Positions 1 to 59,503 of a stretch of 64,000 bases of DNA are shown piece after piece. This stretch comes from Escherichia coli. Its GTDB lineage: Bacteria; Pseudomonadota; Gammaproteobacteria; Enterobacterales; Enterobacteriaceae. The notes beneath the pieces were generated by a model. That model had not been told where the DNA came from. It saw only the letters and a program-made list of their open reading frames with translations, and did not search any database. The stretch is from NCBI RefSeq assembly GCF_036507355.1, contig NZ_AP027877.1; one strand, 5' to 3'. Within the stretch, counting starts at the first letter, position 1. Each line of letters starts with the position of its first letter. A program made the translations under genes and the position numbers.

Positions 1-228
1 CGTTCACCGAATACGTGCGCAACAACCGTCTTCCGGAGCCTGTCATACGCGTAAAACAGCCAGCGCTGGCGCGATTTAGCCCCGACATAGCCCCACTGTT
101 CGTCCATTTCCGCGCAGACGATGACGTCACTGCCCGGCTGTATGCGCGAGGTTACCGACTGCGGCCTGAGTTTTTTAAGTGACGTAAAATCGTGTTGAGG
201 CCAACGCCCATAATGCGGGCTGTTGCCC
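1..228 (-). CDS. insB: IS1 InsB (transposase part), 3' end beyond window; not in ORF track
   Basis: Reverse-strand translation from the ATG at 228..226 gives [78 protein letters not shown]..., running off the window start. Confidence 0.8.
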
Positions 229-427
229 GGCATCCAACGCCATTCATGGCCATATCAATGATTTTCTGGTGCGTACCGGGTTGAGAAGCGGTGTAAGTGA
301 ACTGCAGTTGCCATGTTTTACGGCAGTGAGAGCAGAGATAGCGCTGATGTCCGGCGGTGCTTTTGCCGTTACGCACCACCCCGTCAGTAGCTGAACAGGA
401 GGGACAGCTGATAGAAACAGAAGCCAC
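152..427 (-). CDS. insA: IS1 transposition protein InsA (91 aa)
   Basis: ORF-track protein [43 protein letters not shown]... with CxxC...CxxC zinc finger; recognised as IS1 InsA. Confidence 0.95.
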
Positions 428-468
428 TGGAGCACCTCAAAAACACCATCATACACTAAATCAGTAAG

Positions 469-1848
469 TTGGCAGCATCACCCCTTATTGGGGTTGTGGT
501 TATTGTGGGTGTAGCTCGCTACATCATTAAAGGGTATTCCGCCACTGGCGTGTTATTTGTCGGTGGCCTGTTATTGCTGATTATCAGTGCCATTATGGGG
601 CACAAAGTGTTACCGTCCAGCCAGGCTTCAACAGGCTACAGCGCCACGGATATTGTTGAATACGTTAAAATATTGCTAATGAGCCGCGGCGGCGACCTCG
701 GCATGATGATTATGATGCTGTGTGGCTTTGCCGCTTACATGACCCATATCGGCGCGAATGATATGGTGGTCAAGCTGGCGTCAAAACCATTGCAGTATAT
801 TAACTCCCCCTACCTGCTGATGATTGCCGCCTATTTTGTTGCCTGTCTGATGTCACTGGCCGTCTCTTCCGCAACCGGTCTGGGTGTTTTGCTGATGGCA
901 ACCCTGTTTCCGGTGATGGTAAACGTTGGTATCAGTCGTGGGGCAGCAGCTGCCATTTGTGCCTCCCCGGCGGCGATTATTCTCGCACCGACTTCAGGGG
1001 ATGTGGTGCTGGCGGCGCAAGCTTCCGAAATGTCGCTGATTGACTTCGCCTTCAAAACGACGCTGCCTATCTCAATTGCTGCAATTATCGGCATGGCGAT
1101 CGCCCACTTCTTCTGGCAACGTTATCTGGATAAAAAAGAGCACATATCTCATGAAATGTTAGATGTCAGTGAAATAACCACCACTGCCCCTGCGTTTTAT
1201 GCCATTTTGCCGTTCACGCCGATCATCGGGGTGCTGATTTTTGACGGCAAATGGGGTCCGCAATTACACATCATCACTATTCTGGTGATTTGTATGCTGA
1301 TTGCCTCCATTCTGGAGTTCCTCCGCAGCTTTAATACCCAGAAAGTTTTCTCTGGTCTGGAAGTGGCTTATCGCGGGATGGCAGATGCATTTGCAAACGT
1401 GGTGATGCTGCTGGTTGCCGCTGGGGTATTCGCTCAGGGGCTTAGCACCATCGGCTTTATTCAAAGTCTGATTTCTATCGCTACCTCGTTTGGTTCGGCG
1501 AGTATCATCCTGATGCTGGTATTGGTGATTCTGACAATGCTGGCGGCAGTCACGACCGGTTCAGGCAATGCGCCGTTTTATGCGTTTGTTGAGATGATCC
1601 CGAAACTGGCGCACTCTTCCGGCATTAACCCGGCGTATTTGACTATCCCGATGCTGCAGGCGTCAAACCTGGGTCGTACCCTATCACCCGTTTCTGGCGT
1701 AGTCGTTGCGGTTGCCGGGATGGCGAAAATCTCACCATTTGAAGTCGTAAAACGCACCTCGGTGCCGGTGCTTGTTGGTTTGGTGATTGTTATCGTTGCT
1801 ACAGAGCTGATGGTGCCAGGAACGGCAGCAGCGGTCACAGGCAAGTAA
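469..1848 (+). CDS. dcuC: C4-dicarboxylate transporter DcuC, 5' end disrupted by IS1; ORF opens at a TTG inside the IS1 end
   Basis: 459-aa ORF ...LIGVVVIVGVARYIIKGYSATGV... recognised as DcuC; it starts flush with the IS1 inverted repeat, so the native first codons and promoter are missing from this side. Confidence 0.85.
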   Translation: MAASPLIGVVVIVGVARYIIKGYSATGVLFVGGLLLLIISAIMGHKVLPSSQASTGYSATDIVEYVKILLMSRGGDLGMMIMMLCGFAAYMTHIGANDMVVKLASKPLQYINSPYLLMIAAYFVACLMSLAVSSATGLGVLLMATLFPVMVNVGISRGAAAAICASPAAIILAPTSGDVVLAAQASEMSLIDFAFKTTLPISIAAIIGMAIAHFFWQRYLDKKEHISHEMLDVSEITTTAPAFYAILPFTPIIGVLIFDGKWGPQLHIITILVICMLIASILEFLRSFNTQKVFSGLEVAYRGMADAFANVVMLLVAAGVFAQGLSTIGFIQSLISIATSFGSASIILMLVLVILTMLAAVTTGSGNAPFYAFVEMIPKLAHSSGINPAYLTIPMLQASNLGRTLSPVSGVVVAVAGMAKISPFEVVKRTSVPVLVGLVIVIVATELMVPGTAAAVTGK

Positions 1849-1888: not shown

Positions 1889-2569
1889 TCACCCACTGTG
1901 GTATATGCGTTGCGGTCTGCCAACTTTGCCGTGAACAATTTCAGCAATAATCAGATGGCGGCTGGCGCAATATTCAAGATAACGCCTGGCAGTGGTGCGG
2001 CTGATGGTCAGTGCCTGCGCCACTGTTTCTGCCGTATGTTGCACACCCGGCTCTTTGAACAGTTTTCGCACCGCGTTTAGCGTCAAAGGGTCAATGCCGG
2101 TCGGCAGTTCGTCTTTGGGTTCACCGCGAGCATAGGCATTAAACATCTCATCAATTTGCTTCTGGCTGGCGCTATCAATACTTTCCAGCATATGTTTACG
2201 CTGGCGGAAACGGGTTAGCGTTTGCCCCAGCCGTTCATAGGCAATTGGCTTAATGAGATAATCAAATACACCACAACGTACGGCTTCAGACACCGTTTCC
2301 ATATCGCTGGCTGCAGTGGTAAACACCACGTCGCCGGGATAATGCGCCTGCACCAGTTCATGCAGTAAATTAATCCCTCTACCGTCAGGAAGATAGTTAT
2401 CGAGCAAGATTAGCCCCGGCTTAAAACGCTCGATCATCATTCGGGCCTGCGCCAGGTTTCCCGCCAGTAATATCTGACTGAATCCGGGAATGTGACGAAT
2501 ATATTCCGCATGCATCTCTGCCAGCGGCGTTTCGTCCTCAACGATCAATAGGGTTAATGGAGCTGTCAT
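1889..2569 (-). CDS. dpiA: Response regulator DpiA (CitB)
   Basis: 226-aa ORF MTAPLTLLIVEDETPLAEMHAEYIRH... with receiver domain; adjacent and overlapping dpiB. Confidence 0.93.
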   Translation of the reverse strand: MTAPLTLLIVEDETPLAEMHAEYIRHIPGFSQILLAGNLAQARMMIERFKPGLILLDNYLPDGRGINLLHELVQAHYPGDVVFTTAASDMETVSEAVRCGVFDYLIKPIAYERLGQTLTRFRQRKHMLESIDSASQKQIDEMFNAYARGEPKDELPTGIDPLTLNAVRKLFKEPGVQHTAETVAQALTISRTTARRYLEYCASRHLIIAEIVHGKVGRPQRIYHSG

Positions 2570-4196
2570 TAGGTTTCACTTTCGGAATATAGATTGAAAA
2601 TAAGGTACCGCAGGGATCATTATCTTCGAGAGTGATAACACCACCGCAGCGCGTTACGTAGCTGGCAATCAAGTACAACCCAATGCCATGTTCACCGGGC
2701 TCGTCAGCACGCGTACTGACCCCCTGCTCAAATATTTTGTCTCGTAGAGACTCTGGAACGCCGCAGCCCTGATCGGCGACTTCAATCACCACATCATCGC
2801 CTTCATCGCTGAGGAATAATTCAACGATCTTGTTTCCTTCATCGCTACGCAGGCTGGCTTCGAAGGCGTTATCAAGTAAATTTCCCACAATGGCGGCAAA
2901 CTCGGTGCTATCCAGTCCTGGCGGCAGTTGCGAAAGCTGGCTACCGGGGACGATGATCATTTTTAGCCCCAGTTCGCGGGCGCGCTGCACTTTACCAAAA
3001 AGCAGCCCCGCCACCTGGCGATCGGCAAACGCCTCGCGCAGGCTGTCAATAAGCTGTTGCTGGGCCTGAGACTCCCCCTGCACCATCGCCAGCACGCGAT
3101 CATACTCTTTCATCTGCAACAGACCATTGAGCGTCGACATCCAATTGAGATGCTCGTGTCGCAATGTACGAAGGCTCTCGACGTATTGTTTTATTTGCGT
3201 CAGTTGCGCATTGAGGGTGGAAATTTCGTCTTTACTACGAAAGCTGATAATGGCCCCCAGCAAATCATCACCTGAACGAATAGCTTCCCGATTGGCAATA
3301 ACGCTCAGACCGTTAAAGTTAGCCACCACATCCTGACGTTTTTCATCAATCTGTTCGGTAAAGAAATCGGCGGGCCTGACCACTTCAGCAATGGGTTTAC
3401 CCAACCATTGCCGTCCGGGGGAACTCAGCCCCAGCATCTTTCTTGCGTTACGATTGATGGCGGTAATGTAACCGTGCGGATCCACCGCAATCAGCCCTTC
3501 ATAAACCGAACTAAACAGCGCCTCTTGCTGACGGACCACGCGTGCGATTTGCTTTGGCTCCATGCCCATCATCTGCCGACGGATATGCGCGGCCAGGAAC
3601 CACGACAGCAACATCAGAATCCCTAACAGCACGACAAACACACCTGCCATCGGTAATAAAAACTCAGCCCGCCAGCTATCGATTTTACTCACCAGGTAGC
3701 CAATCGACACCACGCCGATGACTTTTCCATCGTCATCAAAGATTGGCGTTTTGGCGCGCATCGCCATACCCATTGACCCTTTCCCGGTAATGAAGTAGCT
3801 CTCCCCTTTCTCCAGCGCGCCCTGTTTGGTGAACTGCATAGGATAACCAATTTTCTCCGGATTAGGATGGTAAAGGCGGATCGAGTGCCGGTCGCCAATC
3901 ACCACATAATCAAAATCGGTATCTCTTTGTAATTTGTTAGCGATGGTCGCCAGCCGTTTGTAGTCACGCGTTTTCACCGTAGAGATGACACTGTCATTGG
4001 AGGCAATAATTTTCGCCTGATTCATTGCCATGTCGCGTACATGAAGCGTTAAATAGTCCTCAAAACTGGCCGTAAAATATTGCGCCAGGGCTGCAATGAC
4101 AAATATTGAGAACACCAGAATCAGCAAAAAGATACGCAGCGGAAATGCCAGTCTTTGGAAAAATGCAAACTGTTTATTCTCGTTAAGCTGCAACAT
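2538..4196 (-). CDS. dpiB: Sensor histidine kinase DpiB (CitA)
   Basis: ORF 2538..4256; start trimmed to the internal Met (MLQLNENKQFAFF...) matching the recalled DpiB N-terminus; histidine kinase motifs in the C-terminal half. Confidence 0.9.
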   Translation of the reverse strand: MLQLNENKQFAFFQRLAFPLRIFLLILVFSIFVIAALAQYFTASFEDYLTLHVRDMAMNQAKIIASNDSVISTVKTRDYKRLATIANKLQRDTDFDYVVIGDRHSIRLYHPNPEKIGYPMQFTKQGALEKGESYFITGKGSMGMAMRAKTPIFDDDGKVIGVVSIGYLVSKIDSWRAEFLLPMAGVFVVLLGILMLLSWFLAAHIRRQMMGMEPKQIARVVRQQEALFSSVYEGLIAVDPHGYITAINRNARKMLGLSSPGRQWLGKPIAEVVRPADFFTEQIDEKRQDVVANFNGLSVIANREAIRSGDDLLGAIISFRSKDEISTLNAQLTQIKQYVESLRTLRHEHLNWMSTLNGLLQMKEYDRVLAMVQGESQAQQQLIDSLREAFADRQVAGLLFGKVQRARELGLKMIIVPGSQLSQLPPGLDSTEFAAIVGNLLDNAFEASLRSDEGNKIVELFLSDEGDDVVIEVADQGCGVPESLRDKIFEQGVSTRADEPGEHGIGLYLIASYVTRCGGVITLEDNDPCGTLFSIYIPKVKPNDSSINPIDR

Positions 4197-4256: not shown

Positions 4257-4575
4257 AATACATAGATATTAATTATAATCGTGGCAAATTTTATTCATTA
4301 AATCAATTAAATCACTTAAACCTGCGGGTCATTTCGTAATTACATTAATTAAAAAACTTAAAACCATTAAATAAATAAAAAACCACTAACTCTATGTGAA
4401 ATAAATCAAAATTTCACGCCAAAATACTCCTTAGGATGTATAGCGAAAGGAGAAAAAGATATACCTCGATCACCCCCCTTTCTCCCAAGTGAAAATAAAA
4501 GGTTATCAGTTTGCAACATTGAACAACATTCGTTGCAAATCGATAACAACATGCACCTTCAGGATACTATTTATT
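4257..4575. promoter_or_regulatory. AT-rich divergent control region between dpiBA and citCDEFXG
   Basis: About 320 bp of strongly AT-rich DNA between two divergent starts; DpiA-dependent control of citC is established knowledge; exact sites not mapped here. Confidence 0.5.
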
Positions 4576-5634
4576 ATGTTCGGCAATGATATTTTCACCC
4601 GCGTAAAACGTTCAGAAAATAAAAAAATGGCGGAAATCGCCCAATTCCTGCATGAAAATGATTTGAGCGTTGACACCACAGTCGAAGTATTTATTACCGT
4701 AACCCGCGATGAAAAGCTTATCGCGTGCGGTGGAATTGCCGGAAATATTATTAAATGCGTTGCTATCAGTGAATCCGTTCGCGGTGAAGGACTGGCGCTG
4801 ACATTAGCCACTGAACTGATAAACCTCGCCTATGAGCGGCACAGCACGCATCTGTTTATTTATACCAAAACCGAATACGAGGCGCTGTTCCGCCAGTGCG
4901 GTTTTTCCACGTTGACCAGCGTACCAGGCGTGATGGTGCTGATGGAAAACAGCGCCACGCGATTGAAACGCTATGCCGAATCGCTGAAAAAATTTCGTCA
5001 TCCAGGGAACAAGATTGGCTGCATTGTGATGAACGCCAATCCCTTTACGAAGGGTCACCGTTATCTGATTCAACAGGCTGCGGCACAGTGCGACTGGTTG
5101 CATCTGTTTTTAGTCAAAGAAGATTCTTCACGCTTCCCCTATGAAGACCGGCTGGATCTGGTGTTAAAAGGCACCGCCGATATTCCACGCCTGACTGTGC
5201 ATCGCGGCTCCGAATACATCATCTCCCGCGCTACGTTCCCTTGCTACTTCATTAAAGAACAGAGCGTCATTAACCATTGTTACACCGAAATTGATTTGAA
5301 GATTTTCCGTCAGTACCTCGCTCCCGCGCTGGGTGTAACTCACCGCTTTGTCGGTACTGAACCCTTTTGTCGCGTTACCGCCCAGTACAACCAGGATATG
5401 CGCTACTGGCTGGAAACGCCGACTATCTCCGCACCGCCCATCGAACTGGTTGAAATTGAGCGGCTGCGTTACCAGGAGATGCCGATATCCGCTTCCCGGG
5501 TACGTCAACTGCTGGCGAAAAACGATCTCACGGCTATCGCGCCGCTGGTCCCTGCAGTCACGCTGCATTATTTGCAGAACCTGCTTGAGCACTCCCGCCA
5601 GGACGCGGCAGCTCGTCAAAAGACCCCCGCATGA
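4576..5634 (+). CDS. citC: [Citrate (pro-3S)-lyase] ligase CitC
   Basis: ORF 4489..5634 trimmed to MFGNDIFTRVKRSENKK...; first gene of the cit operon. Confidence 0.92.
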   Translation: MFGNDIFTRVKRSENKKMAEIAQFLHENDLSVDTTVEVFITVTRDEKLIACGGIAGNIIKCVAISESVRGEGLALTLATELINLAYERHSTHLFIYTKTEYEALFRQCGFSTLTSVPGVMVLMENSATRLKRYAESLKKFRHPGNKIGCIVMNANPFTKGHRYLIQQAAAQCDWLHLFLVKEDSSRFPYEDRLDLVLKGTADIPRLTVHRGSEYIISRATFPCYFIKEQSVINHCYTEIDLKIFRQYLAPALGVTHRFVGTEPFCRVTAQYNQDMRYWLETPTISAPPIELVEIERLRYQEMPISASRVRQLLAKNDLTAIAPLVPAVTLHYLQNLLEHSRQDAAARQKTPA

Positions 5635-11381: not shown

Positions 11382-11428
11382 TGATTTAATAGATAGTATT
11401 CAGTGTATGTATGAGTTCCACACCCATT

Positions 11429-12235
11429 ATGAAAGCATTCTGGCGTAACGCCGCGTTGCTCGCGGTTTCTCTGCTTCCCTTCTCTTCTGCCAACGCCGTA
11501 GCGTTGCAGGCAAAACAGTATGGCGATTTTGATCGCTATGTCCTGGCCCTCTCCTGGCAAACCGGATTTTGCCAGAGTCAACACGATCGAAATCGTAACG
11601 AACGAGATGAATGTCGCCTGCAAACCGAAACGACCAACAAAGCTGATTTTCTGACCGTACATGGTCTGTGGCCAGGATTGCCTAAATCGGTCGCTGCCCG
11701 TGGTGTTGATGAACGCCGCTGGATGCGCTTCGGTTGCGCTACTCGCCCAATCCCGAATCTACCAGAAGCGCGCGCCAGCCGGATGTGTTCATCGCCGGAA
11801 ACCGGATTATCACTGGAAACGGCCGCTAAACTAAGTGAAGTCATGCCAGGAGCTGGCGGACGTTCCTGCCTGGAACGCTACGAATATGCCAAACACGGTG
11901 CCTGCTTTGGTTTTGATCCGGACGCATACTTCGGTACGATGGTACGCCTGAATCAAGAAATTAAAGAGAGCGAAGCCGGAAAATTCCTTGCGGATAATTA
12001 CGGTAAAACAGTGAGCCGCCGTGACTTTGACGCCGCCTTTGCCAAAAGCTGGGGAAAAGAGAACGTGAAAGCAGTTAAGCTAACGTGCCAGGGTAACCCT
12101 GCGTATTTGACTGAAATGCAGATCTCGATCAAAGCTGACGCCATCAACGCTCCGCTTTCTGCCAACTCATTCTTGCCACAACCACACCCAGGCAACTGTG
12201 GCAAAACCTTTGTGATTGATAAAGCGGGTTATTAA
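11429..12235 (+). CDS. rna: Ribonuclease I (periplasmic RNase T2 family)
   Basis: ORF 11411..12235 trimmed to MKAFWRNAALLAVSLLPFSSANA... (signal peptide). Confidence 0.92.
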   Translation: MKAFWRNAALLAVSLLPFSSANAVALQAKQYGDFDRYVLALSWQTGFCQSQHDRNRNERDECRLQTETTNKADFLTVHGLWPGLPKSVAARGVDERRWMRFGCATRPIPNLPEARASRMCSSPETGLSLETAAKLSEVMPGAGGRSCLERYEYAKHGACFGFDPDAYFGTMVRLNQEIKESEAGKFLADNYGKTVSRRDFDAAFAKSWGKENVKAVKLTCQGNPAYLTEMQISIKADAINAPLSANSFLPQPHPGNCGKTFVIDKAGY

Positions 12236-12382
12236 TCATCTGATTTACAAAACACGCTAATTTGTCTTCCATAAACCAAGGCGATTAAGATTTATACATA
12301 ATGCGCTGCATTGAGGAATTCCCTGAATGTGACGCAAATCACTTCAAAGAGTGAGCAACAGTCAGTATCATCATGTGAGTTA

Positions 12383-12418
12383 AACCCTCGCCGCCTGACG
12401 GTGAGGGTTTTCTTTTGG
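12383..12418 (+). terminator. Probable rna terminator hairpin
   Basis: AACCCTCGCCG...CGGTGAGGGTT imperfect inverted repeat followed by TTCTTTTGG. Confidence 0.5.
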
Positions 12419-12464
12419 GTATGTTTATCTGCGACACTCGCAGTACCGACGACATGGAGTAAAA

Positions 12465-12875
12465 ATGTCCAGACCAACTATCATCATTAACGACCTGGAT
12501 GCCGAACGCATCGATATTCTGCTGGAGCAACCCGCCTATGCTGGTTTGCCAATCGCCGACGCGTTAAACGCAGAGTTGGATCGCGCCCAAATGTGTTCGC
12601 CAGAAGAGATGCCACACGACGTGGTGACAATGAACAGCCGGGTTAAATTCCGCAATCTTAGCGATGGCGAAGTGCGTGTGCGCACGTTGGTGTATCCGGC
12701 AAAAATGACCGATAGCAATACTCAGCTTTCCGTTATGGCTCCGGTAGGTGCCGCACTGCTGGGGCTGCGCGTTGGCGATTCCATTCACTGGGAACTTCCG
12801 GGCGGCGTTGCAACCCACCTTGAAGTGCTGGAACTCGAATACCAGCCAGAAGCTGCTGGCGACTATCTGCTTTAA
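12465..12875 (+). CDS. rnk: Regulator of nucleoside diphosphate kinase Rnk (GreA/GreB-like)
   Basis: 136-aa [32 protein letters not shown]... Confidence 0.92.
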
Positions 12876-12909
12876 TCCCATCTGCACAAGCGATAACTCG
12901 CTTTGCCCA

Positions 12910-12932
12910 GAGGATGCACTCGCATCCTCTTT
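12910..12932 (+). terminator. Hairpin GAGGATGC-ACTC-GCATCCTC with TTT after rnk
   Basis: Perfect 8-bp stem and short T-run about 35 nt downstream of the rnk stop. Confidence 0.45.
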
Positions 12933-13012
12933 ACGCAAAATCAGCAATTTTTCCTGGTTCTCACTGTTCACTTTTGCTGCAAAATTATTCCGTTTCGTTT
13001 GTGGGAATAACC

Positions 13013-13102
13013 ATGGCAGAAGCATTTTACATCCTGATAGGATTTCTGATTATGGCGGCGATTATCGTCATGGCTGTCCTTTACCTCGAAAACCACTCCT
13101 GA
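13013..13102 (+). CDS. Candidate small hydrophobic protein (29 aa, MAEAFYILIGFLIMAAIIVMAVLYLENHS); speculative
   Basis: ATG with GGGAATAA 5-12 nt upstream; single predicted transmembrane-like helix; lies in the convergent rnk/ybdR gap. No homology evidence available. Confidence 0.25.
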   Translation: MAEAFYILIGFLIMAAIIVMAVLYLENHS

Positions 13103-13105
13103 CGA

Positions 13106-14344
13106 TCATATTGTTCCCCCCGGCATCGCATTCACCAGACCTGAAACCGCCTTCTGCGCCGCCTCTGCGCTTTGTGCACCGGGTACCAGAATCACCTTAC
13201 GGCACTCCTCTTCACGTTTTTCGAAAATCTCATATCCCCGGGCGGCCTCTTCAAACGGCATATAGTGGGTAACAATTTCTTCTGGTTTCAGTAATCCTTT
13301 CTCAATTAACGGTAATAATTCTCCCAGCCATGCGTGAACGTGGGTCTGTCCCATTTTAAACGTCAACCCTTTATCAAAGGCGTCGCCAAACAGGAAACCG
13401 TGAATAAATCCAGCGTAGACGCCCGGTACGCTAACAATGCCGCCACGCCTGACCGCCGCAATACACTGACGCAACGCTTTACCGCTGCTGCCCTCCAGTT
13501 TCAGGTTAGTCAGCACCGTTTCCGTGGTGCTGCCTTTCGCTTCAAAACCGACGGCGTCTATTACTGCATCCACGCCCCGGTGACCTGCCGTTTGTTCAAT
13601 AATTGACTGTGCCGGATCGCTATCTTCATCGAAATTAATCGGGATCGCGCCGTAGCGGTCAGCGGCGAAACGCAAGCGGTAGGGATGATGATCAACAACA
13701 AAAATCTGTTCCGCACCGAGCAACCGTGCACAGGCGATTGTCAACAATCCCACAGGACCAGCACCATAGACAGCAACGCTTGAACTTTGTTGGATCTGCG
13801 CATTTTTTGCTGCCTGCCATGCCGTTGGCAGAATATCAGAAAGGAAAAGGGCTTTATCATCTGAAAGCAAAGGCGGTACTTTAAACGGCCCCACATTCCC
13901 TTTAGGGACGCGGACATATTCCGCCTGCCCACCAGGAACGCCACCATACAGGTGACTATAACCAAACAATGCCGCGGGAGCTGGTATCTGTTTTTTATTG
14001 AGCGCAGCGCCTTTACCCGCATTGGTATTTTCGCAGGCGGCATATTACTGCATTCGACAGAAAAAACAGTCGCCACAAGCAATGACAAACGGAATTACCA
14101 CCCGGTCGCCTTTTTGCAAATTTTTTACGTCCTTTCCGGTTTCAACTACTTCCCCCATAAATTCATGACCAAAAATATCGCCATGTTTAACCTGGGGTAT
14201 TTTGCCTCGATAAAGATGGAGGTCAGAGCCACAGATCGCCGTTGCCGTAATACGCAGAATAATATCATCTGCCTGTTCAACGCCCGGATCGGGAACATTT
14301 TCTACCTGAACGTTATATGGGCCGTGATAAGTCAATGCTTTCAT
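13106..14344 (-). pseudogene. ybdR: Zn-dependent alcohol dehydrogenase family gene ybdR interrupted by an in-frame TAA at codon 100
   Basis: ORFs 14045..14344 (99 aa) and 13106..13969 (287 aa) are in the same frame; the 25 codons between them read [26 protein letters not shown], continuing the protein; total 412 codons with one internal stop (complement of 14045..14047). Confidence 0.85.
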
Positions 14345-14564
14345 GCAACCTCCAGAGACAGTTCAAAAAAGAGTCAGTCTTTAAGGGTAGCAATCACAGC
14401 GGGAAAACGGGCGGTACCACAGGTTTTGGGAGAATTCCTGGTGTTCAGTGAGAATATATTCATCACAGAAACAGTTCGTAAGGAAAAAGAACCAGACAAA
14501 TATCAGGGATAAATATTATAATCATGGCGAATGATTTGTTCATGATTAACAGGGAGAAAGGGTT

Positions 14565-14993
14565 ATGTATAAGACAATCATTATGCCAGTTGATGTATTT
14601 GAAATGGAATTGAGCGACAAAGCTGTTCGCCACGCTGAATTCCTCGCCCAGGATGACGGAGTTATTCATCTACTTCACGTACTACCCGGGTCAGCCAGCC
14701 TGAGCCTGCACCGTTTTGCCGCTGATGTGCGTCGTTTTGAAGAGCATCTGCAACATGAAGCAGAAGAACGTCTGCAAACGATGGTCAGCCACTTCACCAT
14801 CGATCCTTCCCGCATTAAACAACATGTCCGTTTTGGTAGCGTGCGGGATGAAGTCAATGAGTTGGCAGAAGAACTGGGGGCTGATGTTGTAGTTATTGGT
14901 TCTCGCAACCCATCGATTTCGACCCATCTGTTAGGTTCTAACGCCTCGAGCGTGATCCGCCACGCCAATCTGCCTGTACTGGTCGTTCGCTAA
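14565..14993 (+). CDS. uspG: Universal stress protein UspG
   Basis: 142-aa [29 protein letters not shown]... Confidence 0.93.
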
Positions 14994-15113
14994 CAGATAA
15001 AAGTATTTATGCCGCCCTGCCTGGAACATCCCGGCAGGGCTTTTTAATGCCATAAAAAAGCCGCCAGGTTTGACCCCGGCGGCTAAGCAATTGCAGGTGA
15101 ATCTTACTTCTTC

Positions 15114-16679
15114 TTATGCAGTTTTGGTGCGAATCAGGTAGTCAAAAGCACTCAGAGAGGCTTTGGCACCTTCGCCAGTGGCGATGATGATCTGCTTGTA
15201 CGGAACCGTCGTACAGTCACCCGCTGCGAACACGCCTTTCACGTTGGTTTCGCATTTCGCATCAATGATAATCTCGCCCATGCGGTTACGTTCGACTGCG
15301 CCTTCCAGCCAGTTGGTGTTCGGCAGCAGACCAATCTGGACGAAAATACCGGCCAGTTCGATGTTGTGAATATCGCCGCTGACACGATCTCGATATTCCA
15401 GACCAACGACTTTGCTGCCGTCGCCTTTCACTTCCGTGGTTTGCGCATTCAGAATAATGTCGACGTTTTTCAGGCTGCGCAGTTTGTCCTGCAGCACCTG
15501 GTCGGCTTTCATTTCTGGCGCAAATTCCAGCAGAGTTACGTGCTCAACGATACCCGCCAGGTCGATTGCCGCTTCCACGCCGGAGTTACCGCCGCCGATA
15601 ACCGCTACGCGTTTGCCTTTAAACAGCGGGCCGTCGCAGTGCGGGCAGTAGGTCACGCCTTTGGTGCGATACTGATCTTCGCCCGGAACGTTCATGTTGC
15701 GCCATTTTGCACCGGTCGCCACGATAATGCTGCGTGCTTTCAGTACCGCGCCAGAAGCTGTTTCAATCTGGTGCAGACCACCTTCAACCGCTGCCGGGAT
15801 TAGTTTGGTGGCGCTCTGGCTGTCGATCACATCAACGTCGTATTCATCAACGTGAACTTTCAGCGCACCTGCCAGTTTCTGGCCTTCGGTCTTCGGTACA
15901 GAAATGTAGTTTTCGATATCAACGGTATCGAGGATCTGACCACCAAAACGTTCGCCCATCAGACCGGTACGGATGCCTTTACGTGCGGAGTAAATTGCTG
16001 CCGCTGCACCCGCCGGGCCGGAACCAACGATTAATACGTCATAAGCATCACGCTTGTTCAGCTCTTCTGCCGCACGTTTTTCCGCGCCAGTATCAATTTT
16101 GGCAACGATTTCAGTCAACGTCATGCGGCCCTGACCAAACTCTTTCCCGTTTACGAACACTGCCGGAACGCCCATCACGTTGCGATCGGTGATTTCGTTC
16201 TGGAAGGTGCCGCCGTCAATTGCAGTATGCTTGATGCGCGGGTTGAGTACGCTCATCAGGTTCAGCGCCTGCACCACGTCCGGGCAGTTGTGGCAAGAGA
16301 GCGAGTAATAGGTTTCGAATTCAAAATCACCGTCAATATGGCGAATCTGCTCCAGCAGAGACTGCGCTTCTTTCGACGGATGACCACCGGTCCACAGCAA
16401 CGCCAGTACCAGCGAGGTGAACTCGTGGCCCAGCGGGGAGCCTGCAAAACGTGGCCCCTGGTTGGAACCTGGGTTGGTGATCAGGAAAGACGGCTTACGC
16501 ACCGGCAAGCTGTTATCTTCTTTAAAGGTGACTTTGTCTGACAGTTCTGCGATTTCAGCCAACAGTTCCTTGATTTCTGCCGATTTAGCGCTGTCATCCA
16601 GCGTGGCAATTAACTCAACAGGCTTGGTCAATTTCTCAAGGTAAGCCTTGAGTTGAGTTTTCATATTTGTGTCGAGCAT
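15114..16679 (-). CDS. ahpF: Alkyl hydroperoxide reductase subunit F
   Basis: ORF 15114..16709 trimmed to [17 protein letters not shown]...; two CxxC redox motifs and FAD/NAD binding glycine-rich motifs. Confidence 0.95.
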
Positions 16680-16807
16680 GTTTATCTCCTGGGCTTTAAA
16701 CATCATCATGCAAGCGGCCTCTGCGGCTACCTGGATGCAGCTTGCATCATGGTGCGGGGAAGAAAATCGGGTGCCGCAGCACCCGATTAATTACGCGATT
16801 GCGGAAC

Positions 16808-46641: not shown

Positions 46642-46762
46642 TTGACAACATCTGGTACGATTCGCCCGCAGCCATCACTGACTGCGGGCGAAAGTGTAAA
46701 GCAGGTGCCTTACCACTCTGACCTGACAACCGGATATGCGGGGATTGCTCCCCGCACAACGG

Positions 46763-46915
46763 CTACTTCTTCGGTTCGTAAGCGAGAACAGCCTTAAACT
46801 CAATATTACGTTCCTTTACGGTGAACTCACACAGCGAGTCTCCGACCAGAAGCGTAAATCCCAGCACCGTCAAACACAGCACTATGACTGCCACAAGGGC
46901 ATATTTCGTCAGCAT
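46763..46915 (-). CDS. hokE: Hok-family type I toxin, copy 1 (50 aa)
   Basis: [50 protein letters not shown]; GGAGG Shine-Dalgarno 8 nt upstream of the ATG. Confidence 0.85.
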
Positions 46916-46954
46916 GTTTATATTGCCTCCATGCGAAGAAGGGACTACCATCCG

Positions 46955-47020
46955 AGTTGTTGAGGCTCGGAGTGGCAGCCCCAGGATTGATAGAAATATC
47001 TCCTGGGGCTTCATCTTTCC
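46955..47020 (+). ncRNA. Expected Sok-type antisense RNA of hok copy 1 (coordinates approximate)
   Basis: Inferred from hok/sok architecture: antisense RNA overlapping the leader and upstream ATG of the hok mRNA; no promoter or ends mapped. Confidence 0.25.
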
Positions 47021-47265
47021 AGACCTCAGAGTTAACCTGAAACCGGAAAGCTTCAGGCACCCGCCGTTATCTTACCCTTCCTTAGCAAAATAGCTGTTTA
47101 TTTATACAGTGAATCCTGTTTCGGACTTCTGTCGGCAAAACTCATCATTGCTCTTAAAACGAAATCGCCCGCAGCCATCACTGACCGCGGGCGAAAGTGT
47201 AAAGCAGGTGCCTTACCATCCTGACCTGACAACCGGATATGCGGGGATTACTCCCCGCACAACGG

Positions 47266-47418
47266 CTACTTCTTCGGTTCGTAAGCGAGAACAGCCCTGA
47301 ACTCAATATTACGTTCCTTCACCGTAAACTCACACAGCGAGTCTCCGACCAGAAGCGTAAATCCCAGTACCGTCAAACACAGCACTATGACTGCCACAAG
47401 GGCATATTTCGTCAGCAT
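47266..47418 (-). CDS. Hok-family type I toxin, copy 2 (50 aa, K41R relative to copy 1)
   Basis: [50 protein letters not shown]; same SD context as copy 1. Confidence 0.85.
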
Positions 47419-47457
47419 GTTTATATTGCCTCCATGCGAAGAAGGAACTACCATCCA

Positions 47458-47525
47458 AATTGTCTGGTTTGGAGTGGCAGCCCCAGGGTTGATAGAAATA
47501 TCTCCTGGGGCTTCATCTTTCCAGA
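47458..47525 (+). ncRNA. Expected Sok-type antisense RNA of hok copy 2 (coordinates approximate)
   Basis: Same inference as for copy 1. Confidence 0.25.
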
Positions 47526-47848
47526 CCTCAGAGTAAACCTGAAACCGGAAAGCTTCAGGCACCCGCCGTTATCTTACCTTTGCTTAGCAAAATAGCTGTT
47601 TATTTATACAGTAAGTCCTGTTTCGGACTTCTCACTCCCCATTTGATCAACTGAAGCTGAACCCGTTTTTTTCTGCATGCCTCAATCGTCAAAATTCTTC
47701 GCCACCAGCCAGCCGTGCCATAACTTGTCACATTGCAAAAGTAGCCAATTTGCTTCAGTCACCATCACCAAAAAAAGAAATATTCCAGAACTTCCGCATC
47801 TCGCCCAGCCGCTCCGACTTCTATACTGAATAGAAAACGCCAACATAA

Positions 47849-58120: not shown

Positions 58121-59503
58121 TTATTGCTGCCAACCGCCACCAAGTGCGGTATATAAAGAAATTTCGTTGACCTGACGGGCATAATTCAGGTCAAGTAAGG
58201 TTTGTCGGGTTGCAAATAAAGAACGCTCGGCATCCAGCACTTCCAGATAACTTACCGCGCCGTGCTGATATAATGCCCGCGCCCGTTGCAAAGTAATTTG
58301 CAGCGACGCCAGATAACGCTGCTGGGCGCTGATTTGATCGTTCAGGCTTTGACGTAATGCCAGCGCATCTGCCACTTCTTTAAAGGCGTTCTGGATTTTC
58401 TGTTCATAATTCACTACCGACTGCTGCTGGCGAATTTCGGCGATATCCAGATTGGCCTGGTTGCGTCCGGCATTAAAAATGGGGATCTCAATTTTAGGAA
58501 TAAAATTCCACATCCCGCTGCTGGCGTTAAATAATGACGACAGATCGCTGCTGGCGGTTGATATTCCGCTGGTCAGGCTTATAGATGGGAAAAATGCCGC
58601 GCGTGCGGCCCCAATATTGGCATTAGCCGCCATTAACGCGTGTTCAGCTTCCATAATATCCGGGCGCTGCAATAAGATTTGCGACGACAAGCCCGCCGGT
58701 AATTTAACGCTTTGCAGGCTGTCGCTGTTTACTGTCTGCGCTTGCGGCAGCTTGCCGTAGCTTCCCAATAACAGTTGCAATGCATTATTCGCCTGCGCCA
58801 GTTCCCCCTGACGTTTAGCGATGTCACTGCGGGTACTTTCTATCACCCCGCGAGCCTGTTCCAGCGCCAGAACATTGCTGCTACCGGTCAACAGTTGTTT
58901 TTCGACAAACGCATATGACTGCTGATAATTACGCAGCGTTTCTTCGGCTATTTGCAATTGCGCATACGCCAGTTGCTGATTGAAATAGCTTTGCGCGACA
59001 TTAGAAACCAGCAGAATATGCACCGCGCGCTGAGCTTCCTCAGTGGCTAAATAATTTTGTCGCTCGGCTTCGCTCATGTTCTTTAAGCGCCCGAAAAAAT
59101 CGAGGTCAAAGCTGGCGTTAAGGCCAGTAGAAAACTCCCGCGTCGTGGCTGAATCGCCTTTAAGATTGCCGCTCCAGCTGCCGCTGCCCTCGCCATTGAG
59201 CTGTGGGTAGCGGTCGGCATCGGTCAGACGATATTGCGCCCGTGCCTCCTGCACTTTCAGCGTCGCCATGCGCAAATCCCGGTTATTCACCAGCGCCTCG
59301 CTAATCAGCGTCTTCACCTGATTATCAACAAAAAAGGTGCGCCAGCCCGCGTTCTGATAGTTATCTGCTGCGTTAACGAGGCCGTTCTGGCTGAGTGAGA
59401 ACTGCTGCGGTACGGGCATTGCCGGGCGCTGATAATCCGGTGCCAGTGAACAACCGGTTAGCGCAAGGGCCACACAAAATGGCAGAAGTTTACAAGGAGA
59501 CAT
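58121..59503 (-). CDS. cusC: Copper/silver efflux outer membrane factor CusC
   Basis: 460-aa ORF MSPCKLLPFCVALALTGCSLAPDY... with lipoprotein signal. Confidence 0.93.
   Translation of the reverse strand: MSPCKLLPFCVALALTGCSLAPDYQRPAMPVPQQFSLSQNGLVNAADNYQNAGWRTFFVDNQVKTLISEALVNNRDLRMATLKVQEARAQYRLTDADRYPQLNGEGSGSWSGNLKGDSATTREFSTGLNASFDLDFFGRLKNMSEAERQNYLATEEAQRAVHILLVSNVAQSYFNQQLAYAQLQIAEETLRNYQQSYAFVEKQLLTGSSNVLALEQARGVIESTRSDIAKRQGELAQANNALQLLLGSYGKLPQAQTVNSDSLQSVKLPAGLSSQILLQRPDIMEAEHALMAANANIGAARAAFFPSISLTSGISTASSDLSSLFNASSGMWNFIPKIEIPIFNAGRNQANLDIAEIRQQQSVVNYEQKIQNAFKEVADALALRQSLNDQISAQQRYLASLQITLQRARALYQHGAVSYLEVLDAERSLFATRQTLLDLNYARQVNEISLYTALGGGWQQ

Follow-up and report, generated by a model that had tools for sequence, protein, structure and literature searches.

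The protein of solved structure that lies nearest to YbdR, an Escherichia coli member of the MDR superfamily, is the alcohol dehydrogenase of Thermus sp. (PDB 4cpd), and the two can be aligned end to end (E=4e-73). Akin to YbdR, the Thermus enzyme conserves the catalytic Cys/His pair, all four cysteines of the structural zinc and Gln100, the residue that is mutated in the allele described below; unlike YbdR, it has no insertions near residues 107-123 and 271-292, and the two enzymes may differ in substrate. We used this alignment for residue mapping only. YbdR carries the features of an MDR zinc alcohol dehydrogenase (ADH), namely C38 and H60 for the catalytic zinc and C90, C93, C96 and C104 for the structural zinc; the 3-3-8 spacing of these four cysteines is that of C97/100/103/111 in horse liver ADH. 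Homology is also clear to the proteins of TIGR02819 (PDB 1kol, 4jlw), the glutathione-independent formaldehyde dehydrogenases, which is the best-scoring named NCBIfam for YbdR. However, the score of 192.2 bits falls far below the cut-off of 636.95, on which ground we rejected this function for YbdR, and none of the NCBIfam equivalog cut-offs was reached. In the literature that we searched, ybdR turns up mainly in transcriptome lists, for example as a gene whose expression rises 7- to 12-fold under a LolCDE inhibitor (PMC5105897).

The ybdR allele analysed here lies in a stretch of E. coli DNA of 64,000 nucleotides (hereafter the window) that is colinear with positions 591,103-655,948 of the K-12 chromosome and shares with it the gene order uspG-ybdR-yldA-rnk. 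Compared to ybdR of K-12 MG1655 (b0608, NP_415141.1), the gene in the window is of equal length and aligns without gaps at 98.5% nucleotide identity over 1,239 nt; this full-length identity and the place between uspG and yldA/rnk identify it as the orthologue of b0608. When the stop was replaced by Gln for Pfam scoring, the translation matched ADH_N (PF08240, 91.3 bits against a cut-off of 23.5) and ADH_zinc_N (PF00107, 47.3 bits against a cut-off of 31.8). As it stands, no single unbroken frame joins the two ADH domains, since codon 100 is TAA, the only internal stop found on translating the minus strand of 13106..14344. Codon 100 of the K-12 gene is CAA (Gln), and the lesion is thus a single C-to-T transition. 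Six further residues differ between K-12 YbdR and the translation of ybdR in the window (H to Y at position 10, H to N at 11, L to M at 98, G to S at 187, H to R at 225 and S to T at 328). With an orthologue that is 98.5% identical and one disrupting base, chance is not an issue. In the list of open reading frames the gene appears as a 99-aa ORF (14045..14344) and a 287-aa ORF (13106..13969, TTG start at codon 126), both in one shared frame and separated by 25 sense codons (101-125), such that 99+1+25+287 = 412. All the figures of the original prediction, which had described a full-length ybdR of 412 codons with one stop at the complement of 14045..14047, thus held up, as did its reading of the change as CAA to TAA, and the alignment to ybdR orthologues that it called for turned up the one disrupting base. 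The stop does not lie in a homopolymer (ATGCAGTAATATGCC). A Dcm hotspot was considered as the source of the C-to-T change and rejected, there being no CCWGG that overlaps the site. The features of the locus are collected in Table 1.

Table 1. Coordinates in the window of ybdR, its premature stop and the sequence features bearing on its expression and decay.
Feature	Coordinates	Strand	Remarks
ybdR pseudogene	13106..14344	-	412 codons and terminal TGA; orthologue of K-12 b0608, MDR-superfamily Zn-dependent alcohol dehydrogenase
Premature stop TAA, codon 100 (CAA/Gln in intact alleles)	14045..14047	-	followed by T, giving TAAT
99 sense codons from the native start	14048..14344	-	include C38, H60, C90, C93 and C96; from sequence and 4cpd alignment
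25 in-frame sense codons (101-125), from stop to first downstream start	13970..14044	-	include C104 (14033..14035)
287-codon residual ORF from TTG codon 126	13106..13969	-	Rossmann/NAD-binding domain; no Shine-Dalgarno, duplex +0.4 kcal/mol
Native Shine-Dalgarno GGAGG upstream of the ybdR ATG	14349..14353	-	intact; -10.2 kcal/mol
Promoter-like site TGAACA-16-TATAAT (10/12), uspG-ybdR intergenic	14515..14542	-	consensus match only
H11N (gene position 31)	14314..14314	-	of the alleles compared, only in the window lineage
H10Y (gene position 28)	14317..14317	-	confined to one group of stop-bearing alleles: window, 33F4, XJ34, TR01, 873.10 and the ERR3330519 assembly
G187S (gene position 559)	13786..13786	-	confined to stop-bearing alleles: window and 33F4
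yldA, gene for a 29-aa small membrane protein	13013..13102	+	convergent with ybdR, 4 nt past its end; intact, 100% identical to K-12

As the original prediction had named a base-calling error as one possible cause of the stop, we searched for the same base in other genomes with a 55-nt probe carrying the T at its centre. Because megablast was run with an exact word of 28 bases, no match can be seeded without that base. The probe matched 14 of 5,426 complete RefSeq E. coli genomes, and the same probe with C at the centre matched 3,554. The stop is accordingly present in 14 of ~3,570 complete genomes that bear ybdR, and in fewer once clonal isolates (33F4/32F4/33E, XJ34/XJ6-3 and 23CRST027/031) are collapsed. 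The carriers were isolated from cattle, pig, chicken, frog, fresh water and human sources on four continents (Switzerland, China, Turkey, Uruguay, Ecuador and Canada), and in all 10 of the carrier genomes inspected PGAP labels ybdR as pseudo with an 'internal stop', at codon 100. The lesion is absent from intact orthologues, codon 100 being CAA in K-12 and in four other intact alleles.

Beyond the complete genomes, ~880 public contigs encode a 99-aa N-terminal fragment that terminates at this stop, in three sequence versions: H10/H11/I22 in 555 contigs (e.g. KTE193), Y10/H11 in 323 contigs (e.g. E. coli BWH 32 and STEC_MHI813) and the window's own version, Y10/N11, in 4 contigs, which include GenBank BED23343.1 (locus tag VEE46_31110, on a 4.64-Mb contig). 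The exact allele of the window is present in GenBank as two proteins, BED23343.1 and BED23342.1. An assembly of run ERR3330519 differs from the window by 1 mismatch in 6,300 nt and is identical to it in ybdR, and the assembly of run ERR3328621 likewise has the exact 287-aa fragment. Single-base errors do happen in assemblies, and had the TAA been a base-calling or assembly error in one genome, the gene would be intact. This reading is effectively refuted and we give it next to no probability: the identical T is found in 14 independently sequenced complete genomes, the stop recurs in the public contigs, the exact allele recurs in the assemblies of two sequencing runs and in a GenBank genome, and no homopolymer is present at the site.

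The age of the lesion was approached by comparing 11 stop-bearing alleles (several of them clonal) with 5 intact ones. The stop alleles are up to 15 differences apart over 1,238 sites (1.2%), a divergence as large as that among intact alleles, and span at least two haplotype groups. In a neighbour-joining tree built from 47 variable sites with the stop site masked, the carriers do not group. A single origin of the stop allele therefore has no support from this tree, in which 47 sites, in a region known to recombine, cannot tell an old and recombined allele from recurrent mutation. Over the ybdR-rnk block the window and strain 33F4 show 3 differences in ~2,100 nt, whereas the uspG block of the window differs from that of 33F4 at 24 of 549 positions and from that of GPT24-02 at 1 of 549, resembling here strains with intact ybdR; the region (window 11400..16700) is thus a recombination mosaic. 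The stop allele is therefore either old and has been moved by homologous recombination, or it has arisen repeatedly.

The substitutions that have gathered in these alleles differ in kind between the two classes. Among variants private to stop alleles, 12 are nonsynonymous and 3 synonymous, as opposed to 4 and 18 among those private to intact alleles (Fisher p=0.0005), with the proviso that some variants counted as 'stop-only', H10Y for one, may be older than the stop or occur in intact alleles outside this small, partly clonal sample. The stop-only variants include C96S, which removes a structural-zinc cysteine, as well as P307L, P345L, H10Y, H11N and G187S. On the 3' side of the stop the private changes of stop alleles are 8 nonsynonymous to 0 synonymous; on the 5' side they are 4 to 3, which by itself does not support decay of the N-terminal fragment. 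We interpret the nonsynonymous excess in stop alleles as relaxed constraint after inactivation, and the opposite ratio in intact alleles indicates that purifying selection acts on ybdR wherever the gene is kept, which suggests in turn that YbdR does something useful where retained.

The divergence of up to 1.2% between stop alleles, together with their excess of private amino-acid changes, argues that the lesion is old. The original prediction had taken it for a recent nonsense mutation; the nonsense mutation stands, its recency does not, the TAA being present in 14 complete genomes. In favour of a recent mutation restricted to this strain and its immediate clone, one could cite the one private change of the window, H11N, and the distance of its relatives: identity to the complete RefSeq E. 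coli genomes does not exceed 99.2% in the 5.3 kb surrounding ybdR, nor 99.0% in the first 25 kb of the window. However, the stop is common to strains found on four continents in cattle, pigs, chickens, frogs, humans and water, and it lies on haplotypes up to 1.2% apart that have undergone secondary degenerative substitutions, so that a recent private origin is extremely improbable.

The position of the stop bears on what can still be made from the gene. It falls between the third and the fourth structural-zinc cysteines (C96 and C104). The uspG-ybdR intergenic region differs from that of K-12 at 1 of 220 bases, and since the native Shine-Dalgarno sequence (SD) has been preserved, the 99-aa fragment probably continues to be translated; ybdR is probably still transcribed as well, judging from the sequence of its upstream region, and read from codon 1 to codon 99. 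Termination at codon 100 is expected to be efficient, as the tetranucleotide context of the stop is TAAT, which Poole, Brown and Tate reportedly described in 1995 as the most efficient termination signal of E. coli. Downstream of the stop, an anti-SD scan found no credible SD at any in-frame ATG, GTG or TTG preceding the nucleotide-binding motif GxGxxG, and an in-frame ATG does not occur until codon 331. Internal restart yielding the C-terminal domain was rejected on these grounds, and a C-terminal fragment from an internal start, which the original prediction had raised, is unlikely: pairing at TTG codon 126 is valued at +0.4 kcal/mol, against -10.2 kcal/mol at the native start. A search for suppressor tRNAs found no tRNA genes within the window.

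Could function nevertheless be kept, by readthrough of the TAA, by a reinitiated stand-alone C-terminal protein or by complementation between the two parts of a split enzyme? The frame is undisturbed past the stop, the promoter-like site and the SD are intact and gene callers predict both fragments; the 287-aa fragment called as a gene in another assembly carries Pfam PF00107. Against this (i) the 8:0 ratio of private changes 3' of the stop is the opposite of purifying selection; (ii) the TAAT context is known to disfavour readthrough; (iii) the starts before GxGxxG have no SD and the window has no tRNA gene; (iv) the structural-zinc site is split between C96 and C104; and (v) any C-terminal product would be made without C38 and H60, the ligands of the catalytic zinc. 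Retained function is thus very unlikely. Nothing in the gene points to programmed readthrough or recoding in particular, because the stop is not conserved (14 of ~3,570 ybdR-bearing genomes) and the frame downstream of it is not under purifying selection.

Taken together our results argue that ybdR is very probably a true pseudogene here, an inherited Gln100 CAA-to-TAA null allele that is old, of low frequency in E. coli and either recombined or recurrent. Translation from the native start would end at codon 100 and release a fragment of 99 residues; as this fragment is devoid of C104, of the remaining catalytic domain and of the whole NAD(P)-binding Rossmann domain, it would not form a dehydrogenase. 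The downstream ORF of 287 codons would be a relic that is not expected to be translated. If the gene is dispensable, the dead allele can persist and collect further damaging substitutions, and we take dispensability to be the reason for both. Hence no functional YbdR protein is predicted to be made, and the persistence of the allele would be neutral.

Dispensability is suggested by the distribution of the gene as a whole. Of 5,422 complete E. coli genomes, ~1,820 possess the ahpF-uspG...yldA-rnk-rna neighbourhood without any ybdR between uspG and yldA (strain U13A is an example), and ybdR thus appears to be dispensable to the species. When 2537..2660 of U13A was set against 13103..14564 of the window, the uspG-yldA spacer and the yldA allele were found to be divergent, with no clean deletion junction. 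A Shigella-like reductive genome was considered as the setting of the lesion and rejected: of the 55 K-12 genes compared in the window, ybdR is the only one with an internal stop, and dcuC is the only other one that is disrupted.

Several other features of the window were recorded alongside. The window begins within a copy of IS1 (1..482), whose InsA ORF occupies 152..427 on the minus strand and whose terminal repeat GGTGATGCTGCC ends at 482. This IS1 sits 20 nt into dcuC (483..1848), replacing its first ~7 codons, and a TTG-initiated ORF of 459 aa (469..1848) spans the end of IS1 into dcuC, from which a near-full-length DcuC might still be made. A tandem duplication of ~503 nt (46662..47130 and 47165..47632; 95-96% identity) encompasses hokE/sokE, a toxin-antisense locus, together with 91 nt of flank on the entD side; each of the two copies has an intact Hok ORF of 50 aa, the two differing by K41R. 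K-12 has a single hokE with IS186 adjoining, and the window is without IS186. In cusC (58131..59503) the K-12 alignment covers positions 1..1373 of 1374, one base short, and the last base of the stop codon probably differs from K-12. For yldA, whose small protein has been described (PMC6001520), the annotation gives 62 aa in strain 33F4 (4399..4587), compared to 29 aa in most genomes, K-12 included; the longer ATG ORF of 62 aa exists in the window too (12914..13102), and the difference is probably an inconsistency in the annotation of the start site.

The loss of YbdR could also have been adaptive in some niche, in which case positive selection, and not neutral drift, would have maintained or spread the null allele. 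Several routes of loss are known: the gene is absent from about one third of the genomes, in S. sonnei it counts as a lineage-defining pseudogene, and Q100* occurs on several backgrounds; many of the carriers come from livestock or food. However, the frequency of the stop is only 14 in ~3,570 ybdR-bearing complete genomes, and lower with clones collapsed; repeated loss fits an accessory gene under weak selection just as well; no phenotype is known, and the source bias of sequenced isolates is uncontrolled. We therefore consider adaptive loss unlikely.

A further possibility concerns the neighbours of ybdR. No gene follows on the same strand, yldA and rnk being convergent, so classical operon polarity is not an issue for this stop. 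The ybdR-yldA pair has been named as a convergent excludon (PMC12288877), and Q100* could uncouple transcription from translation over ~940 nt, lead to Rho-dependent termination within ybdR, lessen convergent transcription into yldA/rnk and so alter the expression of the neighbours; or else loss of YbdR could be favoured in livestock-associated E. coli. We regard these two speculative consequences as decidedly improbable, but if the latter were true, it would explain the presence of the stop allele on several haplotypes.

The reading of an old null allele that drifts neutrally, which we prefer, has little importance beyond correct annotation. The locus is better annotated as a ybdR pseudogene with an internal stop than as two hypothetical proteins, the form in which the fragments were deposited in the GenBank record that holds BED23343.1 and BED23342.1. 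It may also serve as a population-genetic example: in E. coli, a stress-induced oxidoreductase that is dispensable can have a nonsense allele that lasts long, is borne on different backgrounds and goes on decaying, while purifying selection continues to act on the intact alleles elsewhere. The stop allele could be used as a marker of lineage or recombination.

Comparison with the other inactivated copies of the gene places the allele among these. The ybdR pseudogenes annotated in RefSeq for 33F4 (AC0BJ3_RS04430), XJ34 (KFZ60_RS16400) and O157:H7 TR01 (EEL45_RS03300) have the identical TAA at codon 100, and that of 33F4 differs from ybdR in the window at 2 of 1,239 bases. Each of the RefSeq ybdR pseudogenes has extra substitutions of its own (for example P345L, P307L/E365K and M407I/G410R), and their flanking haplotypes differ too. 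The stop is thus an ordinary pseudogene polymorphism that is already annotated in RefSeq genomes. Outside these strains, ybdR is listed as a lineage-defining pseudogene for Shigella sonnei Central Asia III (PMC6811581), which is a different lineage from that of the window; the same gene has thus been inactivated in both, in what would be an independent event in S. sonnei, consistent with its dispensability.
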